A stretch of 64,000 nt of DNA from a virus, in the IMG/VR virus record IMGVR_UViG_3300047496_000382. One strand, given 5' to 3'. Shown piece after piece: positions 2,618 through 45,075 of this stretch. Under the pieces are notes generated by a model that was given only the letters and a program-made list of their open reading frames with translations, was not told the DNA's origin and made no database searches. Positions within the stretch are counted from its first letter, which is position 1. Every line of letters begins with the position of its first letter. Made by a program: the position numbers and the translations under genes.

Positions 2618-3334
2618 ATGGAGCGAAAGAGCATGGGAAGTCGAGAAGCGCCTGAATTCGTGGGTGTACTTGAAGCAGCACGCCTGCTGAAGTGCACAAA
2701 GCGCGCGATTCACGTCTATGTTCGCAACGGCACACTACGCCCTCTTCGGGTCGAAGGCGGCATCCGTTTTCGCGCCACAGACCTGCTTGGACTCCAAGAG
2801 GCGCGGTCACGCACAGACCTCACGCTATTGGAGGTGGCATCCATCGCCCTCCAAGCCAGGGCTATTGCGCGTTTCAACGAACAGCGTCTCGAGGAACTAC
2901 ACCTAGCGCTGGGCATCCCCTCCACAACCCTGGACCGCACGCCAGCAGGAGTGGTTGGGCTCCACGCCGAGGCAGTGCGTCCACTTCTGGCAGAAGACCT
3001 GCGACGGCACGACTTCATCTACTTCTGGGCCTCCTCTTTTGTCGCAATGGATGAAGACTACCTTGCGCTGGTGGCTCGGCACGTTGGGAGTCGTGAACCC
3101 TGGCGCATCTTCCTAGACCTTGCCTCTCAGCTACTGGCGCAGAGCCCCGACATGGCAACGACGGCCATCGAGCTGCGGCAGGCTTTCGCGGCGCTCGAGG
3201 CCGCACGCCGCAGTCTCCGACACGTGGCCTACTTCTACTGCACGCGTGCCGAATCACAGGAGACGGCCAACCAGTTGTTTCCAGAGAAGCCCTCTCCGGT
3301 GGACACCCTGCTGGCCATCCTCTCCTCGCGCTAA
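2618..3334 (+). CDS. Helix-turn-helix protein (excisionase/MerR-like N-terminal HTH)
   Basis: VGVLEAARLLKCTKRAIHVYVRNGTLRPLRVEGGIRFRATDL is a typical HTH_17-like winged helix; the C-terminal helical domain is unassigned. Confidence 0.7.
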   Translation: MERKSMGSREAPEFVGVLEAARLLKCTKRAIHVYVRNGTLRPLRVEGGIRFRATDLLGLQEARSRTDLTLLEVASIALQARAIARFNEQRLEELHLALGIPSTTLDRTPAGVVGLHAEAVRPLLAEDLRRHDFIYFWASSFVAMDEDYLALVARHVGSREPWRIFLDLASQLLAQSPDMATTAIELRQAFAALEAARRSLRHVAYFYCTRAESQETANQLFPEKPSPVDTLLAILSSR

Positions 3335-5145
3335 CCCTGGTCCGTGGGGCCGTTGTAGCCGGAACGAATCGGACCGCGTGCCGGGTCTTCTTTCATCGGC
3401 GCGATGATGTCAGGGCGCGGCGTAATCAGCATAGATGCGAGGAAGCAGTACAAGATGGAGTGGAGCGAGTCGTCCGGGCGGTCGGGGCGGTGCGTGTACT
3501 GAATCGCGCGTGTCGTCTTGTTGTATTCGCTGTAGATGTTGAGACAGTCATTGGCAAAAGGGTCTTCGAACTCCTCCCAGCACGGCAGCTCAATCTGCTT
3601 GCGCTTGATAGCGTTGAAGATGTCACTCATCACTTCTGTACGCATCACCTGCCAGCGGCGCAGGGGGCCGTTCAGCAACAGCTTCTTCTTGAGCTTCGTC
3701 ACGTACTGGTAACGCTGCACGCGACGAGGACCGAACGTTCGAATCAGGCGGTCGTTGGGGTAGTGACCACCGCCGTAGTCTGCGCCAATGACCCGCACGC
3801 TGAAGTACTTCAACATCTCTGCGATGCGGGCGAGCTGTACCTCTGGGTCGACCTCTTCCCCTGTGAAACGGTGAATGTAGAAGATGCGAAACTTCGATTG
3901 CACGTAGGTGCCAAGAGACAGCACCGTGTAGCTGTTCTCGCCAGTGCCCCAATCGAGTCCCGCGAACACTGGCGTCCCATGCGCGCGGTTCTTGTACTTC
4001 TCGAGCTCCGCTGTGCGCATCGTCACGGCGGGATTGCAGCACTCACGCACCTGCGCCCGCGTCAGCGGACGAAGACCCGAGTCGTAGGAGATGCCAAGCA
4101 CCTCGTTGTAGAACTTCTCTCGTGGGTAGCGCCCGTAGTCGAGGTAAATTTCCTCCCACTTCCTCCACGGCACCATCAACTGTGGGATGCGGTACGCCTC
4201 GAAGATGCCGTCCTTCTGCATGTGCGCCCACTGGGCGTCTGCGTGCATGGGGTTCATAATTTTGCCACAGCGCTCGCAAGATAGGCCACGGCGCTGGATG
4301 TTCTTCTCCCCCAGGACGTTCCAGTAGCGCCCGCCCTCGCCGCTCTTGCAGTCGCAGGGCACGACCCACTCGCCCATCGTCGACATCGGGCGGCCCTTAG
4401 AAGTGCCGCTCCTGTAGTACTCGATGACGTTGTCGAGGCTCTTAGGCGTGCCTGCGTAGATGAAGCGCTGCCAGGCTTCAGGAGCGTGGCTGGTCGCCTG
4501 CTCTATGACGGGGATGTTGTCGCCGAGGATGTCCTGGAGCTCGTCGATAAAAAGGCCCCACGCTGGGATGCCACGACAGCGGTCAGCGTTGAGAAAGGCG
4601 TAGCGCAGTGTGATTTTCGAGCGGTTGACGAACTGCTTCTCGAAGACGTTCTGCTGTAGCGCCGACGCTGTGAACGCGCGCAGCACCTCACTGGTCTCGA
4701 GCGGCTCCTTGATGCGGTCCGTGCTGAAGGTCTTGGTCTGCGTCGCAGAGGGAGACACGTACAGCGTGCGGTATCCCGTCACCAAGCACGCGTAGCCGAT
4801 GGCGCGGTTGCCCAGGAGCGTCGACTTCTCAACCTGACGGCCGCAGAAAAGCAACACGCGCTTGGCTGGCGTGTCGTAGATGCGGCGCATGTGGCGACGC
4901 GCCCCAAAGGAGAAGCTCTCGTAGCCGAGACCGTCTGCGCCCGGCATCCGAAACGCGAACTCGGTGAATTGCGAAGGGAGAACGGTCGAGAGTCCGGCAA
5001 CCTGCCGACTCGCCTCTTCGAGGTCAGCCCAGTCGACGAAGGGCTCCGGTTCGGGGCACCAAATTTCTCCGTCGGCGAGCTCAGGCTCATCCTCCTCCGT
5101 GTTGTCGAAACTCAACGCGTGTCCGTGCGCATCAACCAACATCAA
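3331..5145 (-). CDS. terL: Terminase large subunit (GpA-like)
   Basis: Walker A-like GRQVEKST, Walker B FIDELQD, coupling motif AGTPKS, CxC/CxxC Zn site, RNase H-like nuclease AGLDWG...ADYG...DDSLH. Confidence 0.85.
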   Translation of the reverse strand: MMLVDAHGHALSFDNTEEDEPELADGEIWCPEPEPFVDWADLEEASRQVAGLSTVLPSQFTEFAFRMPGADGLGYESFSFGARRHMRRIYDTPAKRVLLFCGRQVEKSTLLGNRAIGYACLVTGYRTLYVSPSATQTKTFSTDRIKEPLETSEVLRAFTASALQQNVFEKQFVNRSKITLRYAFLNADRCRGIPAWGLFIDELQDILGDNIPVIEQATSHAPEAWQRFIYAGTPKSLDNVIEYYRSGTSKGRPMSTMGEWVVPCDCKSGEGGRYWNVLGEKNIQRRGLSCERCGKIMNPMHADAQWAHMQKDGIFEAYRIPQLMVPWRKWEEIYLDYGRYPREKFYNEVLGISYDSGLRPLTRAQVRECCNPAVTMRTAELEKYKNRAHGTPVFAGLDWGTGENSYTVLSLGTYVQSKFRIFYIHRFTGEEVDPEVQLARIAEMLKYFSVRVIGADYGGGHYPNDRLIRTFGPRRVQRYQYVTKLKKKLLLNGPLRRWQVMRTEVMSDIFNAIKRKQIELPCWEEFEDPFANDCLNIYSEYNKTTRAIQYTHRPDRPDDSLHSILYCFLASMLITPRPDIIAPMKEDPARGPIRSGYNGPTDQG

Positions 5146-10647: not shown

Positions 10648-11226
10648 TCAGTGAATCTTCCGATAGGCCGCGACCCGGCAACACCAGTCGATGAAGACGT
10701 CTTGCGCCATCGCATGCTTCATGAAGTTCACTGCGGGGTGCACCCACTGGACATTGCCCGGGATGTAACCCTTCTCGCTGTCAATGCGGTCAAGAGAAGC
10801 TACTGTTTCTCCCTCTGCGAGCGTCTTCTTCGTCATGCCGAGTGGTGCTCCGGTTAGAGCGCATCGGCGTCCTTGTTGTTCAAAAATAGACCACAGTGTC
10901 GCGGCCGTTACTGAGAATACAAATCCTCGGTGACGCGCCTGCGTACGAAGACACCCGTAACGATGCCCACTCAGGTGGCCCGCCGACGCGTACTTCGACC
11001 GGTACGTCCGTGTCTGCATTCGCGCGCAACCGCAAGACTGCGGTCCCTGTTCTACGCGTCTTGGCCTACGCCCTATAGTTGATGCGCGCTTGACTAGCTC
11101 CTTGCCGCACACGCAACGCACACGCCACATAACGTCACCGCGCGCGGCAACTTCACCCGTGGGGGCTAGCACCGTCAACAAGCCGATGACTTTTCCGGCC
11201 AAGTCCTTTCGGATGTTCGGCATCAA
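10648..11226 (-). CDS. Free-standing HNH-type homing endonuclease
   Basis: WRVRCVCG...SCGC N-terminus and CALTG...SLDRIDSEKGYIPGNVQWVHPAVNFMK; ATGA overlap with the RNAP stop. Confidence 0.85.
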   Translation of the reverse strand: MMPNIRKDLAGKVIGLLTVLAPTGEVAARGDVMWRVRCVCGKELVKRASTIGRRPRRVEQGPQSCGCARMQTRTYRSKYASAGHLSGHRYGCLRTQARHRGFVFSVTAATLWSIFEQQGRRCALTGAPLGMTKKTLAEGETVASLDRIDSEKGYIPGNVQWVHPAVNFMKHAMAQDVFIDWCCRVAAYRKIH

Positions 11227-14200
11227 TAGAAGTGCTCCGGCACATCCTTGAGGTGCCCGTAACCGGGTTTGCTGGCGTCCCTCTTCGTCAGACCTAGCTC
11301 GCTGCCGAAAGCCATGCCCGGGACAGGGTGCGTCCCGTGGATGTGCGACACGCCGCGCGTTGCCGCCGCCTCCATCAACGTCTCGCGAAGATGCCGGTGC
11401 TGCAACTTCGCCATCCAGTCTTCTTGCATCTCGAGAGGTAGAACTTCAATGCCTTTCAGCGTCGGCTTGTGTTCGATGGGCTTTTTGCTGGCTGCTATGA
11501 GCTCGGCGTTGAGCTTGTAGACCGTCGTCGTCGGGCGATACTCCCCACGAAGAACAGTCGGGTGGTCTCCAGAGTCCGTGACCTCGGTGAGATTCCCCAT
11601 CACGCGCACGATGGTCTCGATGGCGCGGCGCTTGATGCCCTCCTTCGCGTAGAGACCGTGAATCTCGTCGACGAGGTGTCCCTGCACACGCTCCATCGAA
11701 TTCGTCGCCTTGAAGAGCTGGCGCGGGTTCACGACGGTGCGGTTCGGGTCGGAGAGATGCTGACCTGCCTCGACCTGCATGCCGACGACGGGCGGCTGCC
11801 AGGGCATGTAGCCGCTGATGCCCCGCGAGTTGGGCAGCGCCGCGTGCAACGGCATCCCGCGCGCGTCGTTGCTGACGTGGTGACGCTTGCCGCCGACAAA
11901 GATGTCCACACCTGTCGCGGTCGGTTGAATCTTCTCGACCTTGCCGCTGACCATCGACAGCGTCGCCTCGTTCGGTACGTGCTCCGGCAGCATCAGCAAG
12001 TTCGAGAAGTGCTTGAAGGCGTTGACGACCTTCGAGCCGCTCGCCTCACGCACGCCACCCGTGTGGAAGGCCTTCAAGGTCAGCTGCACTGCGCGCTCAC
12101 CAACCGTGTGCGCCGAGAGAACGCCGATGTTGGTCCCGAGCGGATGCAGGTCTCCCGAAGAAGAAACTCCACTGCACTTCTGGCAGATGCCCTGCTCCTC
12201 CTCACACTTCAGCGGCGAACGAACGACGAGCCTGGCGTCCTTCTTGACCGACCGAATCTTACCCACGATGTCCGGTGTGAGCAGCGTGCCCGCCGGTACG
12301 TGCAGACCATCCTGGTCGAAGTCCTTCTGCAGGTAGCGGTCGTGAATGTCCCGCTCCTGCACCGACAGAGCAACGCCCTTATTGGTGCCACAATCGTGCT
12401 TAGTGATGAGCACGTTCATCATGTTCTGCATCAACAGCTTCGACATAACGCCGGGTTTCTCGACACCCTGGACCTTGAGGACTGCGCCCCGCCGCGCACC
12501 GTGCATCTGCGTCCAATAGCTGCCGAGGTCCAGACCCTCAGAGTAGCTCTTGGTGACCGGTGTCGGGATGTCCTGGTCAGCGGAGTCCTGGTAAATCATC
12601 GGGGCCAAGACCATCTGCTTGTACTGCTCCCAGCCCGGCTTCACGCCCGCGCTGTACATCGTGAAGAGATTCGAAGGGTCCTTCTTCATCTTCTCTTCGT
12701 GCAGCGTCTTCATCGTGTTGCCGGCTGTCTTGTAGACGTTGATGGCCTGGCGGTCCTTGTCAGCCTGCGGAATCTTTGTGCTCGCGTAGATGCTCGCGGC
12801 TTCGGCGTGCGCCGCCTTCAAGACCTTGTCGCGCGTCTCATAGTCTGGGGTGAAATCCTTGAGCGACAGCGTGTGCACCCCCGTGGGGACGAAGATGTTC
12901 TTGCTCGGGTCGTGCACGGCAACGTGCGTGTTTTCGAACTTCTGGAACGCGAAGGCATGGCCAGCGGCTGTGGGCAGCGGCAGGCGTACCGAGCCAGAGG
13001 CCGCGCCGTTGCCGATGTCCTTTAGCTTGTTCACGACGTCGCCGTAGAGCTCGTGATGGTTCTTCGCGAGCGTCGTCAGCATCGCGTCAAGCCCCTTGCC
13101 GTCGACCTTCGTGTTGAAGTCATGGAGATAGGTGTCCTGCATCTCCTTCGGCAGCGCAGCCGCGAGCATCACGCGCCCCGGCGTGGTTTTCTTCCCATCC
13201 AGCTCGACGACATCAGTCGACAGCAGATGACCCTTCTGGACGGCCTCGACAACCTGCGCCGGGTTCTTGAAGGTCTTCCCCGTCTCCTTGCCGACGAGCC
13301 CGAGCTTGTAGAGGCCGAGTGCCGACTCGAGCGTCGGCTGGTACATCACGCGCCCCGTCGCCTCGCTGAAGAGGTTGTTCGATGGGAACATCTTGTGGGC
13401 CTCCGCAACGGCCTCACGCGTGATGGGGACATAGGCGCTCATCGAGTCACCGTCGAAGTCGGCGGTGAATCCCCCAGTCACGAGCGGGTGAATCTGCACC
13501 GCGCTACCTTCGACACGACGCGCACGGAAGCCTTGCACCGAGTACTTGTGAAGCGCAGGGTCGCGCTTGAGTAGCACGGGGCGCTCCTCCATCACCCGGT
13601 CGAGCGCACGCCAGACCGAGGGCGTCGGCTTGGCAAGCAGCGCTGGTGCCTGCAGCTCCGTCTGGATGGCGCCCATCTCGCGCAGCTTCCGAATGACAAA
13701 GGGTCGATAGAGGCTGAGCGCTGCGTGACTCGGGAGTCCGACTTCATCGAGACCGAGCGCGGGCTCCGGCACGATGGTCGAGCGCATCGTCAAGTCCTGT
13801 CGCCGGTTGATGAGCACGCGCTGGAAGTAGCCACGCTTCGGCTGGCTTCCGCTGATTTGGTGCAGGATGCCCTTGAGTTTCTGCCCCTCGTACGGGATGC
13901 CGACGCCCATCAGCGCCTTCACGCCGTCGTAGAGACTCTCGCGAAGCTCTTGCTTGTGCGCGTCGTCAAGGTTCTGCGCGATGACCGGGTCCTTCAGCTT
14001 ATCGTTCACCTTCGCGAAGTCCGAGTAGAGCTTCGTGAGTCCCTCGAACTGAAGGTTGCCGTCGGGCAGCCGCGAGACCGCACGCAGCACGGGCGGCATC
14101 ACCGGCAGATTGTGCAGCACGTATGCGTCCGCCGGCTTGAGGTTCGCAGTGTCGAGCGCACGCAAGTACTTCACACGCTTCAAGACACTGTCGACCTTGT

Positions 14201-17200
14201 GCTCACCACGCACCGTTCGCAGTTCTTCTTCGGCCTTCCGCAGGTCCTTCTTCACGTCGATGCGCTCAAGAAGCAGCTTGATGCCAGCACCGCCGGTGAT
14301 GCCTGCATGCGTGTCCGTGAGATGCCCGTTGGGCGTGATGCCGCGTGTTCCTGCGATGACGGCGTCGTAGTCCTTCTGCGAGAGCCCGGTGAGGTGTCGA
14401 ATCGGGGCTTCGAAGACAGGGTTGGGGAGCGGCTCGGCCAGCGAGATGCGCGTCCACTGTCGACCCCCGTGACCGCCCGTGAGCTTCTCGTCGAAGAGGC
14501 CACCCGTGATGGGCTTCGGGTCGCCGTTCCCGTCGACCTTGTTGCGATGCACCAGCTCTGCAGGCTTCGGCAGCTCCTTCGGCGCGAGCGTTCGAATCTG
14601 GTCATCCGTCAACGGCGTGAGGATGAAGTCATGTCCCTTCTTCTCGAGGTTCACACCTGCACCACGCAGGAGGTCTTCGAATTTCTGGAACGCGAAGGTC
14701 GGCTTCGGCGTAGGCAGCGCGCCACCAGTCGCAATGGCTGCCCAAATGCGTCGATGGTCACTGGGCCACTGCTTCGAGGGGCTCGTGTTCGGGTCCGGCC
14801 CTTCAGACTTGTACGACTGCATCTCACGGATGTTCGCCTTCGCGCCGTGCGCGAGGAGCGCGTAGAGCCCGAGGGTTCCCATCGCCTGACCGCCGGTGTG
14901 CCCACCGCTCGCCGGTTGCAGGTTCGAGTCGTAGGTCTCGTGCTCTCCTGACCCAGGAAGCGGGTCCATGCCGCTGCGCACTGAGAGCTTCTTGTCGACC
15001 TGGTGCACGAGCTTGAGCATGTGCATCGGACCCACAAGCGCGTGTCCGAGACTTTGCTTGGTGACCGGGTCGATGAGCTCCTCGGTGTCGGAGAGCCCGT
15101 GCGTCTTCAAGTCACTCTTCACCCGCGCGAGGAAGTCGACGCCCGGCTCAAAGTTCTCGACGAGGTAGGTCTTGCCCGTCTTCTTGGCGACCTTGCCGGC
15201 GGCCGTCTCGAGCACCTGGCTCACGTTCATGCGCCCAGGAACGCCGCTGGGGTTCAGGGCCACTTCGATGTGCTCGCCGTTGGGCGTGTGCGGCATCTCT
15301 GCGTCAGGGAGGATGCGCGTGACGATGCCCTTGTTGCCGGCGCGTCCGGTGAGCTTGTCGCCGACCTGCATCGGCTCCGTGGTCTTCACGTGCACTGAAA
15401 CACCGTCCGGCCCACGGTGCACACTCACTACCTCGCCCGAGGCGTCCGCGTCCCAGCGCAAACTCTTGTCGGTGTGCGCACCGCTCATGCTGCGCCGAAT
15501 CGCGCTGAGGCCAGTACGGTCCTTCAGACGGAACGGCTTCATGGCCGCAACAAGCGGGTCGCCGGGACTGACTCGGCTACCGACGCGCACGATGCCGTCG
15601 TCGTCGAGCTTTGCGAGCTGGTCCTTCTTGAAGACGTTGTGATGCTCGCGCATGAACGCGGCTTTGTTGAGCTTCGTCTCCCCGTCGACCGCGAGCGTGT
15701 GCTTGTGGAGGTGCTCGCTCGAGAGCTTATCCGCCGCAGACTGGCTGATGACGATGCCGTCCTCGAAGTTGTAGCCACGAAAGGGGATGAACGCGACGCG
15801 GAGGTTCGTACCGAGAGCGAGTGTGCCGTTCTTCGAGAAGTTCGTGTCCGCGACCGACTTGCCCTCCTTCACTTCGTCCCCGACCTTCACCGTCGGCGTC
15901 GAGTGCAGCATCCCCTTGGCATCGTTCAACGGGTAGTGCTGGTAGAGCTGGACCTCGTGCTTCTGTCCGCTCTTGTCCGTGATGACGATGGCGTCCTTCT
16001 TCACCGACGTCACGTGCCCATCGACCGGCGCGACGTGCGACGCGAAGTCCCCGACGACCTGCTCGAAGGTGACCGGCCCCGGGACACCCGTAGAGACCTG
16101 CACCAGCGGCGGCTCACGATGCACCAACGAGATGGCCTGCTCCATCTGCCGGCTGGCCATCGAGGCACGACCGCCGCTGGTGTTCCCCATGAAGGGGATG
16201 AGGTTGGCCGTGATGTTGAAGAGCTGCGCCGGCAATCGCATCACGTAGTGCGCATCTTCGAACTTGCCGTTCTCGATGGCGTTGTTCTTCACGCTCATCT
16301 TCACGGTGTCGGAGATGGGCTTGGGCCGCCCGTTCTCCCAGCGCACCTGGTCGGGGAGCACGACGTTCGCATCTAGGAACGTGGCTGCGTTCACGTGCTC
16401 CATCTCGTGAGTGCGCGTGTTGTAGAGCTGGATGCGCGCCTCGTTGCCGACCTTCTTCAGACCGACGGGCAGGCGGAGCGTGACGCCTGTCTTCGCACCC
16501 TCGGGGGTGTTGATGGGGTCGAGGAAGCCGAGATGGCTCGGGTTCACGAACTTCGCCTCGTCGACGATGCCGCGCTCGCTACGGATGCCGCCCGGTCCCA
16601 TGATGGTCGTCTGCATTGCAGAGCCGAGCATCTCGAGAGGGTTGATTTGCGACGGCGTGGACGAGGCTTCGTTCTCCTTGAAGGTGTCGCGGACCGGGCG
16701 GTCGAAGAGGTCCATCTTGATGATGTCGCGCACCTCCTTCGCCGTGTTGATTTTCCTCTCAATGCGCTTGCGAATCCCAGGACCTGCACCGCGCAACTTG
16801 TCGTAGGCGAAGTCTCCGGCCGAGCGCAGGTCCTTGAAGACGAGGCTGTCACGGTCATCTTCTGGATGGCCGGCCTGGACCTTGAGCATCTTCTCCGTCG
16901 CGAGCCGAATGGCTTCCGACGTCACATGCGTGAGCGGCTTTCCGAGTGTAACGCTGGTGGAGTCAGGTCGGAGCTTTGAGCGCTCCATTGCCTGGTAGAA
17001 GTGAGCCGCTGCCTCCTCGTGCGACGACGGCGCCGTTCCTTTGCTAGTACGGTAGAACGCCTCGAGCGCGGCGCCGACATTGCGCGCGTTCTTGTTGGCA
17101 GTGAGGATTTCTTTCCCCCACGCCTTCTCGAGCTCTTCGTCCGTCGCGCCGAGCGTCTTCAGCAACGGGTACAACGGCGGGTGCGCCTTGTTGTAGTCCA

Positions 17201-17669
17201 TCGTGAAAATCTTCGTGTCCGGGTCGAAGGCGAGGTCGAACCGGCGCCCGTCCTTCACGTTGAACTGACTCTCGAGCTCACCGTTCTGCCTGCGGCGCGC
17301 GTACACGCCAGGCTTGAGCTGCCACTGGTTCGAGACCTGGTACTCCCGCCCATCGACCAAGTAGCTGTGGCGACGCGTGGTCTTCGGAATCTCCGCTACC
17401 CGGATGCGCTGACGGTCGATGAGTTGCCCGGCCTTGTCCTTCAGCGCGAATGTTGCGAAGACAGGTACGGCCCAACTCTCGCCGTTCACCTTCGCGGCGT
17501 GCTGCCCACGAATGTCATCTGGGTGCAGGTCATCCTGCACCTCGAGGTTCTCGAGGTGGAGCGATTGCAGCTTCCCTTGAATGCTCCCATTCGGGAAGTG
17601 ACTGCGAATGCCCTCGAGCACGTGGCTCTTGAGGTCGTCGAATGCGTCCGTCGGGGCGAGGTAGGCCAA
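11223..17669 (-). CDS. rpoBC: DNA-directed RNA polymerase, fused beta-beta' single polypeptide (~2,148 aa)
   Basis: Beta motifs: MGPGG, TPEGAKTG, GYNFEDG, GDKLTGRAGNKG, NPSGVPGRMN, MLKLVHQVDKK, GGQAMG. Beta' motifs follow in the same frame: LPVMPP, KRGYFQRVLINRR, KRDPALH, TADFDGD, HGARRG, CEEEQGICQKC, GERAVQLTLKAFHTGG. Start moved to TTG at 17669 behind a GGAG RBS (the track starts at 17804). Confidence 0.96.
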   Translation of the reverse strand: MAYLAPTDAFDDLKSHVLEGIRSHFPNGSIQGKLQSLHLENLEVQDDLHPDDIRGQHAAKVNGESWAVPVFATFALKDKAGQLIDRQRIRVAEIPKTTRRHSYLVDGREYQVSNQWQLKPGVYARRRQNGELESQFNVKDGRRFDLAFDPDTKIFTMDYNKAHPPLYPLLKTLGATDEELEKAWGKEILTANKNARNVGAALEAFYRTSKGTAPSSHEEAAAHFYQAMERSKLRPDSTSVTLGKPLTHVTSEAIRLATEKMLKVQAGHPEDDRDSLVFKDLRSAGDFAYDKLRGAGPGIRKRIERKINTAKEVRDIIKMDLFDRPVRDTFKENEASSTPSQINPLEMLGSAMQTTIMGPGGIRSERGIVDEAKFVNPSHLGFLDPINTPEGAKTGVTLRLPVGLKKVGNEARIQLYNTRTHEMEHVNAATFLDANVVLPDQVRWENGRPKPISDTVKMSVKNNAIENGKFEDAHYVMRLPAQLFNITANLIPFMGNTSGGRASMASRQMEQAISLVHREPPLVQVSTGVPGPVTFEQVVGDFASHVAPVDGHVTSVKKDAIVITDKSGQKHEVQLYQHYPLNDAKGMLHSTPTVKVGDEVKEGKSVADTNFSKNGTLALGTNLRVAFIPFRGYNFEDGIVISQSAADKLSSEHLHKHTLAVDGETKLNKAAFMREHHNVFKKDQLAKLDDDGIVRVGSRVSPGDPLVAAMKPFRLKDRTGLSAIRRSMSGAHTDKSLRWDADASGEVVSVHRGPDGVSVHVKTTEPMQVGDKLTGRAGNKGIVTRILPDAEMPHTPNGEHIEVALNPSGVPGRMNVSQVLETAAGKVAKKTGKTYLVENFEPGVDFLARVKSDLKTHGLSDTEELIDPVTKQSLGHALVGPMHMLKLVHQVDKKLSVRSGMDPLPGSGEHETYDSNLQPASGGHTGGQAMGTLGLYALLAHGAKANIREMQSYKSEGPDPNTSPSKQWPSDHRRIWAAIATGGALPTPKPTFAFQKFEDLLRGAGVNLEKKGHDFILTPLTDDQIRTLAPKELPKPAELVHRNKVDGNGDPKPITGGLFDEKLTGGHGGRQWTRISLAEPLPNPVFEAPIRHLTGLSQKDYDAVIAGTRGITPNGHLTDTHAGITGGAGIKLLLERIDVKKDLRKAEEELRTVRGEHKVDSVLKRVKYLRALDTANLKPADAYVLHNLPVMPPVLRAVSRLPDGNLQFEGLTKLYSDFAKVNDKLKDPVIAQNLDDAHKQELRESLYDGVKALMGVGIPYEGQKLKGILHQISGSQPKRGYFQRVLINRRQDLTMRSTIVPEPALGLDEVGLPSHAALSLYRPFVIRKLREMGAIQTELQAPALLAKPTPSVWRALDRVMEERPVLLKRDPALHKYSVQGFRARRVEGSAVQIHPLVTGGFTADFDGDSMSAYVPITREAVAEAHKMFPSNNLFSEATGRVMYQPTLESALGLYKLGLVGKETGKTFKNPAQVVEAVQKGHLLSTDVVELDGKKTTPGRVMLAAALPKEMQDTYLHDFNTKVDGKGLDAMLTTLAKNHHELYGDVVNKLKDIGNGAASGSVRLPLPTAAGHAFAFQKFENTHVAVHDPSKNIFVPTGVHTLSLKDFTPDYETRDKVLKAAHAEAASIYASTKIPQADKDRQAINVYKTAGNTMKTLHEEKMKKDPSNLFTMYSAGVKPGWEQYKQMVLAPMIYQDSADQDIPTPVTKSYSEGLDLGSYWTQMHGARRGAVLKVQGVEKPGVMSKLLMQNMMNVLITKHDCGTNKGVALSVQERDIHDRYLQKDFDQDGLHVPAGTLLTPDIVGKIRSVKKDARLVVRSPLKCEEEQGICQKCSGVSSSGDLHPLGTNIGVLSAHTVGERAVQLTLKAFHTGGVREASGSKVVNAFKHFSNLLMLPEHVPNEATLSMVSGKVEKIQPTATGVDIFVGGKRHHVSNDARGMPLHAALPNSRGISGYMPWQPPVVGMQVEAGQHLSDPNRTVVNPRQLFKATNSMERVQGHLVDEIHGLYAKEGIKRRAIETIVRVMGNLTEVTDSGDHPTVLRGEYRPTTTVYKLNAELIAASKKPIEHKPTLKGIEVLPLEMQEDWMAKLQHRHLRETLMEAAATRGVSHIHGTHPVPGMAFGSELGLTKRDASKPGYGHLKDVPEHFY

Positions 17670-17697: not shown

Positions 17698-17705
17698 AGG
17701 GTAGC
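17698..17705 (-). promoter_or_regulatory. Candidate -10-like element GCTACCCT upstream of rpoBC
   Basis: TANNNT hexamer in the divergent intergenic region; an identical octamer lies at 62698-62705. Confidence 0.3.
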
Positions 17706-17743
17706 TCGCACGCGAGAACACATGCAAGGCAGAACCAAGCGGT

Positions 17744-17753
17744 GGAATAAGAG
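17744..17753 (+). promoter_or_regulatory. Putative phage promoter motif GGAATAAGAG
   Basis: One of four GGNATAAG copies; 44 nt before the first gene of a plus-strand unit. Confidence 0.55.
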
Positions 17754-17787: not shown

Positions 17788-17916
17788 ATGGGGCCCGAAA
17801 GCAAGGACGCTGGCGCGCTGTTTCAGCGACGCATCGAGCAGATGTTCGAACTCGAGGAGCAACAAGATGACGAAGATGAACCAGAAGAAGACCTCGATGA
17901 AGGGAATACAACGTGA
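17788..17916 (+). CDS. Small, very acidic protein (42 aa)
   Basis: Below the ORF-track cutoff. MGPESKDAGALFQRRIEQMFELEEQQDDEDEPEEDLDEGNTT with RBS GGAAGGAG. Confidence 0.55.
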   Translation: MGPESKDAGALFQRRIEQMFELEEQQDDEDEPEEDLDEGNTT

Positions 17917-18600: not shown

Positions 18601-19208
18601 CCGCGTCCGCTGGCCTACTAGAGAAGACGGGCTGGACATGCACAAGCTGCGACGAGCACATCGAGTACGTCGAAGAAGTCTTCCAGTTGCAGGTTGTGGA
18701 GATGCGCCTCATCGAAGGACACCTCCGCTACTTGCCCATCATGGCGACGAACGGGGACTACCTGTTCGACCCGCAATTCATCTGCTTTCGCTGCTGGGAA
18801 GACGCCTACGAAGACCTGAAGGAGCACGTCGATGACATGCCGTCCCTGGACGACATGGGAAGCATGTTCGCCTGCTCAACTTGCGGTAGCGGCATTCGCG
18901 AAGGGGAGTACACCATCATCGCGACGCTCGGAGAGATGCATCGCTCTCGCCGCGCACCACAAGGACACCACGACCCGACGTTCGTGCCTTCAGGAGCGCC
19001 GACAGTCCTCTGCCTCTACTGCGCGAAGTGTGTCGATGAGCAGTCCATCGATATGTGGATAGGACTGGGACACAACAACGACTGCCTCGAGTGCGCGCAC
19101 GTTCGCTGCTGGCGCAACGACGTGACGTGCGAGTGCCACTGCCACACAGACGACCCCTACGAAGAAGAAGACGTCGAAGACGACACTGAGGAGGACACCG
19201 ATGGCTGA
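18588..19208 (+). CDS. Cys-rich multi-zinc-finger protein
   Basis: CTSC, CFRC, CSTC, CLYC, CLEC and CECHCH motifs with an acidic tail. Confidence 0.65.
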   Translation: MAYIAASAGLLEKTGWTCTSCDEHIEYVEEVFQLQVVEMRLIEGHLRYLPIMATNGDYLFDPQFICFRCWEDAYEDLKEHVDDMPSLDDMGSMFACSTCGSGIREGEYTIIATLGEMHRSRRAPQGHHDPTFVPSGAPTVLCLYCAKCVDEQSIDMWIGLGHNNDCLECAHVRCWRNDVTCECHCHTDDPYEEEDVEDDTEEDTDG

Positions 19209-20430
19209 GAAGACCGAGAAGAAAGTGGGCGATGACCAAATCGTGGTGCACAACCTGGAGGACATCCTCCAGATGGCGCTGCTGGTCCCGAAGGATGACC
19301 CGCGAGACCCAGAGTGCCGCTGGGGGGCACCCATCTGCCTCTGGGGCTCGCCAGGCATTGGCAAGTCGGGCCGTGTCGAGGTTGCCGGCACGCGACTCCA
19401 GTTGCCTGTGGAGACGGTCTACCTCGCTACGAGGCAGCCCGAGGACATCTCCGGCGCACCGTTCCAGGACGTCAAGAACGGCGGCATCACTATCGAGACG
19501 ATTCTCGGGGCCGTCCGCACACTCGTCGCCGCGAAGAAGGGCGTGCTGTTCCTCGACGAGCTGTCGTGCGCACGACCCGCCATCCAGGGCGCCGCGCTCG
19601 GTGTCGTCTACGAACGCAAGGTCGGCGACACCGTGCTGCCGCCGCGCGTGCGCGTAGTTGCCGCGGCCAACCCCCCGGAAGAAGCCGCCGGCGGCTGGAT
19701 GCTTTCTCCCCCGATGGCCAACCGCTTCATGCACTTCACGGTGCCTGTGCCTTCTCGCGCGGAGTGGAGCGAGTGGCTCATGGGGAACGACGCGAGAGAA
19801 GACGTCAACCTCGCAGCGAACGAAGCGATGGTTGCCCAGAACTGGGACGTGGTCTGGGCACGCGTGAAGGGCGCCGGCGCGGGCTTCATGCTGAAGAGCC
19901 CGGACGACACGCTCTACGCGCTGCCGCGCGAAGGCAGCAAGGACCGCACGCGCGCATGGCGCTCCCCGCGGTCGTGGGAGCTCGGACTGCGCGCAGTCGC
20001 CACGTGCCGAGCCCTGGGACGTCCGGAGCTCGAGCTCGAGCTGCTCACTGGCTGCGTGGGTCACGCAGGCGCTGAGATGTGGGCGACGTACAACAAGAAC
20101 CTCGACCTCCCGGACCCGAAGGAGATGCTCGAGAAAGGCTGGACGCCGGACAAGATGCGCCTCGACGTCTGCCACGCCGCGTACTCCTCGGCCATCAGCT
20201 ACGCGCTCGACCCAAAGGACAAGAAGGAGCAGCGCGCGCGTGCAATTCTCGCGTGGAAGCTTCTGCAGGGCGGCCTCAACGCGAACATCCCCGACATCAT
20301 CGCGCACCCGGCGAAGACGCTCATGAAAGCGGGCTACCGCGCGTCCGTCGATGCGGAGCTCAAGGCTGTGGCGGGTGAAATCACCCTTCGCTTCGGCCAC
20401 AACAAAATCGCGAACATGGTCTCGCGATGA
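19201..20430 (+). CDS. MoxR-type AAA+ ATPase
   Basis: Walker A GSPGIGKS, Walker B LFLDELS, sensor AAANPP, Arg finger ANRFMHF. Confidence 0.88.
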   Translation: MAEKTEKKVGDDQIVVHNLEDILQMALLVPKDDPRDPECRWGAPICLWGSPGIGKSGRVEVAGTRLQLPVETVYLATRQPEDISGAPFQDVKNGGITIETILGAVRTLVAAKKGVLFLDELSCARPAIQGAALGVVYERKVGDTVLPPRVRVVAAANPPEEAAGGWMLSPPMANRFMHFTVPVPSRAEWSEWLMGNDAREDVNLAANEAMVAQNWDVVWARVKGAGAGFMLKSPDDTLYALPREGSKDRTRAWRSPRSWELGLRAVATCRALGRPELELELLTGCVGHAGAEMWATYNKNLDLPDPKEMLEKGWTPDKMRLDVCHAAYSSAISYALDPKDKKEQRARAILAWKLLQGGLNANIPDIIAHPAKTLMKAGYRASVDAELKAVAGEITLRFGHNKIANMVSR

Positions 20431-21929
20431 GCAACCACGAAGAGCGCATCGCAGTCGCGCGCGCCTTCGCCATCTTGACAGCGCCCTACTACATCGCCGC
20501 GATTCACGGGTTCGTGTTCGTGGCGGTGCCCGGGTGTCGCACGATGTTCCTCACGCGGAATCTCATCTGCGGGTACGACCCTGAGTGGGCCGTGCGCGCA
20601 ACGGACGAGGAACTGGCCGCGGACATCATCCACGAGGTGAACCACTTCCTGCGTCGGCACTTCGAGCGGTCCGACACCGTGGCGTACCCAGACCTCTTCG
20701 CTCTCGCCGGCGACCTACCCATCAACTCGGACATGCGAACTGCGGGATGGACGCTCGAAGAAGGCTCCATCTACCCCGAGAGCTTCGACCTGCCCGCCGG
20801 GCTGAGCACAGAGGAGTACTACGAACTCCTGCTCAAGAAGAAGAATGAAGAGGAAGAAGAGGAGAAGAAAAAAGAGAAGGACGAACAGGAGGGCGGCGAC
20901 GAAGAGGGCGAAGGAAAAGGCGGTGCTCCCGGCGGACAGAACAACAAGACCGACGGCGACCAGAAAGGCGCCAGCGGGAAGAAGCCGCAACCGGACCCGA
21001 ATGCCAAGAACGCTGGAGCGGGCAGCGGCAAGCCAGGCAAGGGGCAAAGCACACCCAGCAAAGGCGGTGGCGCGGGTGGCAAGGGCACACCGGTAGATAA
21101 GAAGTGCGCCGCAGGCAACTGCGGGTCCATCGCCGGTCCCTCCCACCCGCTCGAGCAAGCGACGTTGGAGCAGCTCGCTGCAAGTGTTGGCCGCAACGAG
21201 GTCGAACAGAGGGTCATCGAGAAGCAGGTCTCGCAAGCCATCAAGACACACGCAGCGACGAACGGTCGGGGGTCCGTGCCCGCCGACCTTCTCTCCAAAG
21301 CCGAGATGGACGACGAGCCCTCGACCATTCCCTGGCAACAGGAGCTGGCATCGGTGCTGCGCAACACCTCTGGACGCATCCAGTCCGGTGGTGACGACTA
21401 CTCCATCTCGCGGCCATCAAAGCGTTCTGGACTGCGCCGCGGTCTCATCAGACCTGGCCTGGTCGAGCACCTTCCCGAGGTCGGCATCGTCATCGACACC
21501 TCGGGCTCGATGGGTCCGCAGCAGCTCACTGCGGCCGCGCGCGAGGCCTACGCCGTTTGCCAGGCGCTCGGCATCGACGAGGTCTGGTTCTGCGAAGCAG
21601 ACGCCGCCATCTCACAAGACTGGAAGCGCGTCGGTCCTTCCTTCTTCCGCGACCTCGAGATTCGTGGCGGAGGCGGTACTGACTTCGCGCCCGCCATCGC
21701 CAGCGTGGACCGGTTGAACCCCCGACCGGACCTCCTCGTGTACTGCACCGACGGCGACGGCCACGCTCCTAAGCAGCCGCCACCAAATCTCGAAGTCGTA
21801 TGGGCAGTAGTTCCTTCGTACTTCAACCGCGCTCCCGCTCAATGGGGTCACACGGTCATCATCTCCGATGACCTGGGTCGTCGTCGACGCGAGCTCATCC
21901 TCCCAGACGATACAAAGGACACGCCATGA
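20427..21929 (+). CDS. Metallopeptidase-like (HEXXH) plus VWA domain protein (DUF2201-like)
   Basis: IIHEVNH, charged low-complexity linker, MIDAS DTSGS, GGGTDF and TDG; ATGA-coupled to the AAA gene. Confidence 0.85.
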   Translation: MSNHEERIAVARAFAILTAPYYIAAIHGFVFVAVPGCRTMFLTRNLICGYDPEWAVRATDEELAADIIHEVNHFLRRHFERSDTVAYPDLFALAGDLPINSDMRTAGWTLEEGSIYPESFDLPAGLSTEEYYELLLKKKNEEEEEEKKKEKDEQEGGDEEGEGKGGAPGGQNNKTDGDQKGASGKKPQPDPNAKNAGAGSGKPGKGQSTPSKGGGAGGKGTPVDKKCAAGNCGSIAGPSHPLEQATLEQLAASVGRNEVEQRVIEKQVSQAIKTHAATNGRGSVPADLLSKAEMDDEPSTIPWQQELASVLRNTSGRIQSGGDDYSISRPSKRSGLRRGLIRPGLVEHLPEVGIVIDTSGSMGPQQLTAAAREAYAVCQALGIDEVWFCEADAAISQDWKRVGPSFFRDLEIRGGGGTDFAPAIASVDRLNPRPDLLVYCTDGDGHAPKQPPPNLEVVWAVVPSYFNRAPAQWGHTVIISDDLGRRRRELILPDDTKDTP

Positions 21930-22234: not shown

Positions 22235-22279
22235 GAACAGCGGGGTGCCTTCGGGCGCTCCGCTGTTCTTCTAGCTACT
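22235..22279 (+). terminator. Intrinsic terminator hairpin (TTCG loop) with CTAGCTACT tail, probably bidirectional
   Basis: GAACAGCGGGGTGCC-TTCG-GGCGCTCCGCTGTTC between convergent genes. Confidence 0.75.
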
Positions 22280-24357
22280 CAGACTGCTGCTCCCGCGCGG
22301 CGCGGCGCGCGCTGCTCTGGAAGCGGTCGTGTGTCCACACCGGGGTTCCCCTGTCCAGGCTCCCGCATCGACGCCAGCATCTGCTTGACGAGGTCGGCGA
22401 GCTCGGGGCTCTGCAGCCGCAAGTTGCCGAGCGCGACCTCTTGCTGCTTCGGTGGCATCGCCGAAATCTGCTGCGCCTGCATCATTGCGAACGACGGCAA
22501 GTCGACGTTGAGGCGCGCGCCCTCGTTCTGGTTCTCCGGCTGCATCCGCTGCGCACCAGTGAGCTGGCTTGCGACGCCGGCGAGGAAGGTGGCCGGCGGC
22601 ACACCCATCGCCGTCGAAGGCGGCAGCGCCGGCTGTCCCTGCACCACCTGGCCATCGGGACCGACGACCTGGAGCTCAGGAGGCAGCTGCACGCCGCCCT
22701 GCACCAGCTCCGACCCCGGACCGCCGCCAGCGCCCTGCTGCTCCGGACCACCAGGCTCCCCTGGCGCGAGTGGCGCGGCGGCCGCCTGCTGCAGGACCTG
22801 CTGTCCCTTCGCCTGCATCTTCATCATCACGACCTGCGCCTCGCCTTGAATCTGCGCCATGGCGAGCTGCTGCTTCTTCATCGCAGCGAGCTTCAGGTCC
22901 GACTCCTCCATCATCGTGTTCGTCTCGTCGGTCTGCGAAAGGTCACTGTCGGCGAGGAGAGCCGTGTCGGAGATTTTACCAGCGGCGTTGAGCTGAAAGA
23001 AGAAGGCCTTGCGCTGCAGGTCGTCAGCCATCTTGAACGGCTTGAAACGCACACTCGCCTCGGGCCAGCCCATGTACGCAGCGACGTTCTTCATCACGAA
23101 GCGCGCAAGCGCCTTGTGGCGCAACGTGTAGCCGATGAACGCGTTCTCGAGCATGCGCATCGAGACGTTCGTACCGGCGTAGCTCATGCCGCCGAGCAAG
23201 AACTCACGCGGCACGCCCATGCCGACCATGATGTGCTCGGACCACTGTTGAATCTCGCCGGTGAGAAGCAGGGCTCGCCCGTCTCCACCGACGGTCTGTT
23301 GCCCGACGGGCAGCGGGAGGATGGGGATGTAGTTGTTGTCGTAGCGCCAGCGCGCAATCTCGGCAGCAATCTGGTCTCGCCAGTCGACGAGGTTCGTCGT
23401 GGTGTACGGGTCACTCGTCCCGCTGCCTGCCTGCGGGAAGAGGATGCGCAACGGCACGATGTGCTCGAGGAGGATGGCTTCCTGCGCCTTCTTCATCGTC
23501 TGCAGGTAGAAGGCGTCCTTCAGCACGGGCAGCAGCAGCGGCGTGCCCCAGCCACGGTCCTGCGTCGCAAGCGTTGGCCGGCGCAGATGGAAGAAGTTGT
23601 CTTTCGAGAAGATGACGCCCTTCGACTCGCGCATCGCCTGGATGAACACCTGCGGCGTCGACTCGACGACGTCCTTCCGACCCAGCACCACGTCGTTCCT
23701 GATGAGCGCCGGGATGTTGTAGAAGTAGGTGTACTCACCTGTGATGTCGTTGTACGTGATTTCTATGTCTTCGGGATTCCACCGGATGAGCCGAATGCCG
23801 CTCGCGTTCTTGAAGTAGTAGTCCTTCGGGATAGCGTCGCCGAGGAACCCACACTCCGGACACGTCATACGGAACTGGTAGTTGGTGCAAATCCAGAAGG
23901 CTCGAATCTTCGAGGCCTCATCGCGGAAGTTGCAGCGGGTGCACTGCAAGTATTTCTTGAAGGGATAGCTCAGCGAGATGCAGGCGTTGCCGTACGCGTG
24001 GTAGTCGAGCCCCGATTCGACTTGGAACGCGCGGTAGCGGAGGTGGTCCTGGAAGTACTCCGTGTACTGCTTCTTCACCGCCTCATTCTGGTGGTCGACG
24101 ATGATGTCTGTGACCGGGTACTCGCTCAGCTTGAACACCGTCGCGTTGATGAGCGGGTTCGTCATGAAGTAGTAGCGGCACCACTTGAACAGTCCCTTGA
24201 CGGTGACCGGCAAGTACGTGTGCGCGACGTCGAAGAAGGGACTCGGATAGTTGACCCCCTGGACGTTGCCACCACCCTGTGTGCGCCCGCGCGTCTGCGC
24301 GAAGCGCATGCCGCTGGCGGGCCCCGATGCGACTCCGAATCCGCCCATGAACGACAT
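22279..24357 (-). CDS. Probable portal protein
   Basis: 692 aa; N-terminal helical region (YFMTNPLINATVFKLSEYP), central domain with GWGTPLLLPVLK...AQEAI, Gln/Pro-rich C-terminal tail; lies in the head block. Carries CTRC/CPEC motifs. Confidence 0.6.
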   Translation of the reverse strand: MSFMGGFGVASGPASGMRFAQTRGRTQGGGNVQGVNYPSPFFDVAHTYLPVTVKGLFKWCRYYFMTNPLINATVFKLSEYPVTDIIVDHQNEAVKKQYTEYFQDHLRYRAFQVESGLDYHAYGNACISLSYPFKKYLQCTRCNFRDEASKIRAFWICTNYQFRMTCPECGFLGDAIPKDYYFKNASGIRLIRWNPEDIEITYNDITGEYTYFYNIPALIRNDVVLGRKDVVESTPQVFIQAMRESKGVIFSKDNFFHLRRPTLATQDRGWGTPLLLPVLKDAFYLQTMKKAQEAILLEHIVPLRILFPQAGSGTSDPYTTTNLVDWRDQIAAEIARWRYDNNYIPILPLPVGQQTVGGDGRALLLTGEIQQWSEHIMVGMGVPREFLLGGMSYAGTNVSMRMLENAFIGYTLRHKALARFVMKNVAAYMGWPEASVRFKPFKMADDLQRKAFFFQLNAAGKISDTALLADSDLSQTDETNTMMEESDLKLAAMKKQQLAMAQIQGEAQVVMMKMQAKGQQVLQQAAAAPLAPGEPGGPEQQGAGGGPGSELVQGGVQLPPELQVVGPDGQVVQGQPALPPSTAMGVPPATFLAGVASQLTGAQRMQPENQNEGARLNVDLPSFAMMQAQQISAMPPKQQEVALGNLRLQSPELADLVKQMLASMREPGQGNPGVDTRPLPEQRAPRRAGAAV

Positions 24358-28211: not shown

Positions 28212-28276
28212 TCAAGACTCCTTCTGCGCGACAGTACCCGGCGTTTCAGCTCACGCGCAACAGTAACGGCACTGCT

Positions 28277-28286
28277 GGCATAAGAG
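28277..28286 (+). promoter_or_regulatory. Putative phage promoter motif GGCATAAGAG
   Basis: 44 nt before the ATG at 28321, the first gene of the replication block. Confidence 0.55.
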
Positions 28287-33253: not shown

Positions 33254-33279
33254 GTCTCCGCAAACAGTTTCTAGCCACC

Positions 33280-33289
33280 GGGATAAGAC
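33280..33289 (+). promoter_or_regulatory. Putative phage promoter motif GGGATAAGAC
   Basis: 46 nt before the dnaB ATG. Confidence 0.55.
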
Positions 33290-44660: not shown

Positions 44661-44705
44661 AGAAGGCCCTCGCCGCAAGGCGGGGGCTCTTCTTTTCTAG
44701 CTACT
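44659..44705 (+). terminator. Intrinsic terminator (GCAA loop) with CTAGCTACT tail
   Basis: GAAGAAGGCCCTCGCC-GCAA-GGCGGGGGCTCTTC then TTTTCTAGCTACT. Confidence 0.8.
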
Positions 44706-45032: not shown

Positions 45033-45075
45033 AGTAGCTAGAAAAACAAGAGAGGGGACCTCTCGGCCCCCTCCC
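45033..45075 (-). terminator. Intrinsic terminator (GAGA loop) with CTAGCTACT tail
   Basis: On the minus strand: GGGAGGGGGCC-GAGA-GGTCCCCTCTC then TTGTTTTTCTAGCTACT. Confidence 0.8.

Follow-up and report, generated by a model that had tools for sequence, protein, structure and literature searches.

The window analysed here (64,000 nt) corresponds to positions 32000-95999 of a 177,425-bp virus record with an estimated completeness of 95% and a G+C content of 62.5%. On its minus strand, a single-chain β-β′ RNA polymerase (RNAP) is encoded at 11223..17669. The stop-free frame starts with a TTG codon at 17669, 6 nt 3′ of a GGAG Shine-Dalgarno sequence, and ends with a TGA at 11223, yielding a chain of 2148 residues, the length of the database copy. 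The longest possible frame begins at 17804; homologues begin at the position of 17669. Pfam domains follow in the order Rpb2_3, Rpb2_6, Rpb1_1, Rpb1_2, Rpb1_5, and NCBIfam and PDB searches likewise return β domains followed by β′ domains. The RNAP is a single gene present in one copy in the genome. A previous interpretation of the same DNA without database searches (the sequence-only reading) had described a bacterial-type β-β′ RNAP in one uninterrupted ORF with its junction near 14600-14660, which agrees with a β end at 14657-14643 and a β′ start at 14627.

The gene was also correctly placed inside a morphogenesis block. Its neighbours include the portal gene (22279-24357) and the terminase gene (3331-5145, matching PF05876), with the capsid and protease genes just beyond the window edge, and the RNAP gene stands at the head of a structural operon. 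Immediately downstream, a free-standing HNH-type homing endonuclease is encoded at 10648-11223 (minus strand), its ATG overlapping the RNAP stop codon (TGATG); such a gene follows the RNAP in just one other of 34 related loci (L023, 44% identical). A MoxR-like AAA ATPase and a DUF2201 metallopeptidase-VWA protein are encoded as a pair at 19201-21929 (plus strand), divergently from the RNAP gene, and the same arrangement occurs in the chromosomal island of Pendulispora rubella described below.

The fused frame is confirmed to be real and not an assembly artefact. All 34 related IMG/VR loci (39-66% identity) maintain a single frame across the β/β′ junction, and the same junction is found in more than 100 independent homologues. 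Clustering of the homologues at 90% identity gives a median length of 2145 residues over the 120 highest-ranking clusters; at 50% identity, 136 of the 150 highest-ranking ones contain β, the N-terminal half of β′ (β′-N) and its C-terminal half (β′-C) in one chain. Two of these 150 stop at the point where the enzyme of Salmonella myovirus Arash is split; the remainder are mostly fragment-like. Arash (OQ632216) and the Vibrio phages D69, D148 and D181 are the closest cultured relatives. Many of the 34 loci carry intein-sized in-frame insertions of about 300-500 residues (L011, L013, L014, L016-L021, L023, L025, L027-L031). The insertion sites are few and fixed, lying beside catalytic motifs (query residues about 392, 774-786, 1410 and 1870), and the insertions are probably inteins, some with LAGLIDADG domains.

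Architecture of the polymerase chain

Alignment to the E. coli enzyme assigns residues 1-1010 (14640..17669, minus strand) to β and residues 1015-2148 (11223..14627, minus strand) to β′. The β part keeps the K1065/K1073 lysines, E813/D814, R1106 and H1237 (E. coli numbering) and is devoid of the lineage insertions i4, i9 and i11. Five residues (1010-1014; 14628..14642, minus strand) connect the end of β (residues 1005-1009) to the first β′ strand (residue 1015) and are predicted to form a tight β-hairpin with pLDDT of about 91-93. Retained in the β′ part are the second zinc site (C814/C888/C895/C898), the clamp, the catalytic barrel, the bridge helix and the histidine of the trigger loop. It has no large jaw/i6 insertion, and the N-terminal zinc ribbon (C70/C72/C85/C88 in E. 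coli, about 32 residues) is deleted at 14430..14504 (minus strand). This deletion is common to Arash and D69; the ribbon is present in Carin-5 and YerA41. In total, the chain is about 600 residues shorter than E. coli β plus β′, in keeping with the streamlined enzyme proposed in the sequence-only reading.

The catalytic Mg-binding motif TADFDGD (residues 1402-1408; 13446..13466, minus strand) appears as NADFDGD in most relatives. The family preserves 234 of the 515 columns that are conserved at ≥95% in 37 bacteria, all active-site columns included; the preserved residues comprise the Mg-binding aspartates, both β lysines, E813/D814, R1106, H1237, the histidine of the trigger loop and the cysteines of the second zinc site. 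With DxDGD in the β′ barrel, two lysines in the β barrel, a bridge helix and a trigger loop, the chain has the defining features of two-barrel RNAPs. The AlphaFold model of residues 589-1600 (pLDDT 84.8, pTM 0.79) presents the junction as a confident β-hairpin, and bacterial β′ is its best structural match. Alignment and prediction together show an apparently intact fused catalytic core, with both double-psi barrels on one polypeptide.

The σ-binding elements, namely the flap tip and the clamp helices, have diverged but are still present. The rifampicin pocket of β carries the substitutions Q513S, D516S, H526S, R529Q and S531T, hence the enzyme is expected to be rifampicin-resistant. The AFxDEL tag noted on other head proteins is absent from the RNAP, a point against the role proposed below.

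Possible assembly without α and ω subunits

The sequence-only reading recognised no α, ω or σ gene in the window, and suggested that the enzyme might be independent of both α and σ. Whole-genome profile searches for α (PF01000, PF01193, TIGR02027) and ω (PF01192) return no match, with a very diverged substitute for either being possible, and profile searches reveal no α gene in five relatives, of which three have complete genomes. The surfaces facing α are modified as well. Within 15066..15299 (minus strand), D1084 is replaced by Glu (residue 791) and G1215 by Pro (residue 868), and just upstream R1058 is replaced by Glu; D1084 and R1058 are α-contact positions. All three residues are invariant in the 37 bacteria and changed in the phage family, where position 1215 is mostly Pro, and bacterial motifs at the α-contact positions survive in only 2-3 of 150 cluster representatives. 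In the E. coli enzyme β G1215 hydrogen-bonds α R45, a bond without which B. subtilis RNAP works (PMC13202282). The enzymes of phiKZ and AR9 provide a precedent for α loss (PMC8287921, PMC7598289). Because no α or ω gene is detected here, no α gene is found in the five relatives and the contact residues are altered, α-independent assembly is plausible and, in our estimate, somewhat favoured; the fusion would then replace the α dimer as the assembly platform.

The most serious competitor, which we nevertheless consider unlikely, is that the fused chain serves as a replacement core that works with the phage σ factor and borrows α, perhaps also ω, from the host. Bacterial β-β′ fusions still use α. 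The α-facing β segments and the β′ 515-545 helix are altered rather than deleted and remain partly conserved, and the enzyme is far nearer to bacterial RNAP than the phiKZ enzymes are. The proteome of Arash particles would not have revealed host α, since the search covered phage proteins only (PMC10585845). Against such borrowing stand the changes at D1084, G1215 and R1058 and the near disappearance of the bacterial motifs. Moreover, a packaged enzyme would need to find free α after injection, and related enzymes operate in phages of Salmonella, Vibrio and probably myxobacteria.

A phage σ factor and promoter-like motifs

A σ70-family gene encoding 262 residues is located about 60 kb beyond the window end, at genome positions 156060-156848 (L042:6060-6848, minus strand). 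The product matches Pfam Sigma70_r3 (E = 8e-10) and PHROG 351 (E = 6e-8), its model aligns to σ factors over about 250 columns, and it is 32% identical to its orthologue, Arash Gp10. The gene lies inside a structural block, in Arash order. Both the P. rubella island and four of five related genomes contain orthologues, the fifth genome being 91% complete. Screening viral contigs with a σ pattern gave nothing, but searches of genomes and proteins did find σ. Arash and D69 possess a second σ factor, whereas no Gp196-type σ is detected in this genome, with the caveat that the family σ profile matches Gp196 weakly. Arash has only two GGnATAAG sites on its plus strand; one of them (L044:11588) is situated just upstream of gp9-gp10, and the Arash σ gene may therefore drive its own expression.

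A word search of upstream regions yields GG[CG]A[CT]AAG, with 20 of 27 copies intergenic against 10% expected (p = 7e-15). Of the 27 sites, 17 have a CAA or CAT element, for which there was no selection, at a distance of exactly 19 nt on their upstream side (p = 8e-25); in four relatives this element accompanies 40 of 141 sites, compared with 8 of 273 genic matches. Together the two elements form a bipartite promoter-like motif, CAA-N16-GGnAYAAG, located before non-structural genes in this phage and in the four relatives; in four related genomes the core ranks with the leading upstream words. Replication genes, the ThyX gene and small genes have the motif in front of them, and structural genes do not. 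The top upstream word of Arash is GGTATAA, with 21 of 23 sites on the non-structural strand; the Arash phage-type sites, predicted to be early, read GGTATAAG, and the CAA element is weak there. A σ54 reading of the motif was rejected, as GC at -12 is absent.

Four phage-type candidates, which like all promoters discussed here are sequence patterns and not mapped transcript starts, are found in the window. CAA-N16-GGAATAAG at 17725..17751 (plus strand) faces the AAA+VWA cassette and stands back to back with a σ70-like promoter candidate of the RNAP gene at 17698..17727 (minus strand; TTGCAT, 18-nt spacer, TACCCT), the CAA/TTG bases being common to both. The others precede a helicase/UDG unit (28258..28284, plus strand), the replication operon, 46 nt before its DnaB-like gene (33261..33287, plus strand), and the ThyX gene by 41 nt (46779..46805, minus strand). 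In 17 of 23 loci the RNAP gene is preceded by the σ70-like pattern; the loci are related to one another, and the pattern was defined after inspection. Of 47 structural operon heads, 13 likewise have such a pattern in front of them, compared with 2.9 in shuffles and 6% for all genes. We infer from these arrangements that the phage polymerase and σ factor would read CAA-N16-GGnAYAAG.

Terminator-like hairpins followed by a T run and a conserved CTAGC (TTTAGCC in G001) often lie just ahead of a phage-type promoter. They are found at 44685-44702 and 45035-45052 of the window and at 100557-100570, 133038-133050 and 141171-141183 of the genome.

Proposed role in infection

Our best explanation, to which we assign a probability of roughly 65%, is that the fused chain is the phage's own core transcription enzyme, most likely carried in the particle and paired with the phage σ factor. 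The RNAP and σ would be made late, from structural operons whose σ70-like promoters are probably read by host RNAP, packaged into the particle and injected to start the next infection. The injected pair would transcribe replication, metabolic and small early genes, leaving the late genes to host RNAP. Coliphage N4 packages an early enzyme, which is T7-like, and relies on host σ70 for its late genes.

Packaging of core and σ appears quite probable from gene position and from Arash proteomics, which also suggest their injection and early transcription by them. In Arash particles, the RNAP proteins Gp206 and Gp216 and the σ factor Gp10 are all detected, Gp206 with the most spectra of any protein, above the major capsid protein; the second σ factor, Gp196, is not in the particle list (PMC10585845). 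The alternative of a non-virion enzyme for middle or late genes, present in Arash particles by carry-over, is improbable. The particles were sucrose-gradient purified and gave 116 proteins, primase and like enzymes among them, and the authors themselves allow for carry-over (PMC10585845). In phiKZ-like phages, furthermore, it is the non-virion enzyme that has the σ-like subunit (PMC8287921). Against this alternative, Gp206 exceeded the major capsid protein in spectra. The RNAP gene here heads a structural operon with a σ70-like promoter, while the phage-type motif points in the opposite direction and is missing before structural genes. The σ gene too sits in a structural block.

As a side observation, a SNF2-like helicase encoded at 47198-48664 (minus strand) is 39% identical to Arash Gp217. 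The latter is abundant in particles (PMC10585845), and in Arash its gene directly follows the β′-C gene, making the helicase a candidate RNAP partner.

The suggestion of σ-independence fails, since the phage encodes its own σ70-family factor and a matching promoter-like motif. A self-sufficient polymerase resembling the virion enzymes of crAss-like phages or P23-45 would fit the loss of the β′ zinc ribbon and the divergence of the clamp helices and flap tip, but it is very hard to reconcile with a conserved, co-occurring σ gene and a bipartite promoter of fixed spacing.

Phylogenetic position and host

In trees of the concatenated subunits, of β and of β′, the family and Arash/D69 are sister groups with SH-aLRT support of 99-100. 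The separate β and β′ phylogenies that the sequence-only reading had called for thus place both halves with Arash/D69 and in no sampled bacterial clade. The family branches outside the 37 bacteria, Myxococcota included, and apart from Carin-5, YerA41, TM30 and RP13. The trees were computed under LG+G4 with a quick search and no mixture model, are unrooted, and contain neither an archaeal outgroup nor phiKZ rows. As long branches meet in these unrooted trees, the description of the family as deep-branching is provisional. Derivation from the bacterial lineage is accordingly sustained only in a loose sense: the enzyme is most similar to bacterial RNAP, yet in an unrooted tree it falls outside all sampled bacteria. 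A chimeric assembly or a recent capture of host rpoBC, which the classification of the record as a provirus might suggest, is already refuted by the shared junction of the independent homologues, the uninterrupted frame of every viral locus, the agreement of the two trees, an identity of only 25-30% to bacterial enzymes and the missing rplJ/rplL context. Despite the provirus label, no tyrosine integrase was found in the genome.

The chromosome of P. rubella contains a 47-kb syntenic island (G006:C1:9195200-9241600), a defective prophage with an open 2147-codon RNAP gene (59% identical) and a σ gene (51%). The island keeps tail/baseplate-like genes and is devoid of capsid, portal, terminase and replication genes, and may represent an element in decay or one that has been domesticated. 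It suggests that close relatives have a myxobacterium as host, and the phage itself probably infects myxobacteria.

Comparison with known polymerases

The enzyme shares with those of Arash (Gp206 and Gp216) and D69 the β/β′ junction, the zinc-ribbon deletion and the D1084E/G1215P changes, and the phages share orthologous σ, portal, capsid, terminase and SNF2 helicase proteins and the same promoter core. They differ in that Arash, D148, D181 and D69 have β and β′-N in one protein and β′-C in another, in place of the one chain seen here. In Arash the break falls behind the catalytic barrel (1525 + 606 residues), near the cyanobacterial/phiKZ split site, and identities to the present chain are only 32% and 23%. 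As the Arash enzyme is split after the β′ barrel, full fusion is not required. Of the features of the Arash/D69 type, the fusion of β to the β′ N-half, the deleted ribbon, the Gp10-type σ and GGnATAAG are all found here, the separate β′-C gene is not. Judged by sequence, the enzyme belongs to the Arash lineage, of which full fusion is the common form. The Arash paper lists the RNAP proteins; it does not remark on the fusion and did not test function (PMC10585845).

More distant systems were considered and rejected. The mReC enzymes (PMC7481178), as well as those of Carin-5 and YerA41, align readily to cellular β/β′ and fall outside bacteria. The mReC rows listed, however, have separate β and β′ of about 900-1500 residues (the criterion being at least 800), a PF07068 capsid and a PF03237 terminase, none with PF05876 (PMC7481178), whereas the capsid here has no Pfam match and PF05876 is the best match of the terminase. 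Architecture, capsid and terminase therefore all speak against mReC membership. Six sample identifiers of related loci are absent from the mReC supplements (PMC7481178). Carin-5 (Cobetia) and YerA41 (Yersinia), which we infer to be mReC, have not lost the zinc ribbon and lie apart on a long branch of their own. The phiKZ/AR9 systems are also phage-encoded two-barrel enzymes without an α or ω gene, and a virion-carried form exists. They consist of at least four highly divergent chains, with two enzymes per phage and a σ-like subunit unrecognisable by sequence; one single-copy gene and a recognisable σ70 homologue exclude this type here.

Bacterial RpoBC fusions (Helicobacter PRK09603, Wolbachia PRK14844, and some Patescibacteria such as L081) similarly join the β C-terminus to the β′ N-terminus, but are housekeeping enzymes, longer, and keep the zinc ribbon and α. 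Scores of 473 and 457 bits against PRK09603 and PRK14844 (cut-offs 5372 and 4632), the tree placement and the lack of ribosomal-protein context rule out a bacterial RpoB/RpoC or RpoBC fusion, and the phage fusion is independent in origin. Finally, crAss-like phi14:2 gp66, Thermus P23-45 and YonO are single-chain two-barrel phage RNAPs as well, some virion-delivered, but have no recognisable similarity to cellular subunits (PMC7481178) and no σ70 partner.

Implications

Our literature search, which left most subscription journals outside, returned no paper in which the fusion, the family or the function of the enzyme is described. This locus adds to the family a CAA element whose spacing is fixed, two promoters arranged back to back, and a prophage remnant in a myxobacterium that retains RNAP and σ. 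We put at about even odds the full proposition of a very large undescribed phage lineage with a two-component holoenzyme (a 2,100-residue chain and a 260-residue σ) that has no α or ω, is particle-injected and rifampicin-resistant, and uses its own bipartite promoter. Because Arash is in culture, the main predictions can be tested in a relative. Encoded by two genes, equipped with a promoter of its own and altered in the rifampicin pocket, such a polymerase would provide a compact orthogonal transcription system and a marker gene for a large group of phages.

To our knowledge, all cellular RNAPs use an α-like assembly platform, phiKZ and AR9 being the known exceptions, and these two have diverged to a degree that makes its replacement difficult to discern. 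The present enzyme still aligns residue by residue with that of E. coli, and could thus show which changes remove the need for α, ω and the zinc ribbon. If the proposition is true, no simpler cellular-like RNAP holoenzyme would be known, and its lineage would have parted from the cellular one close to the bacterial root.
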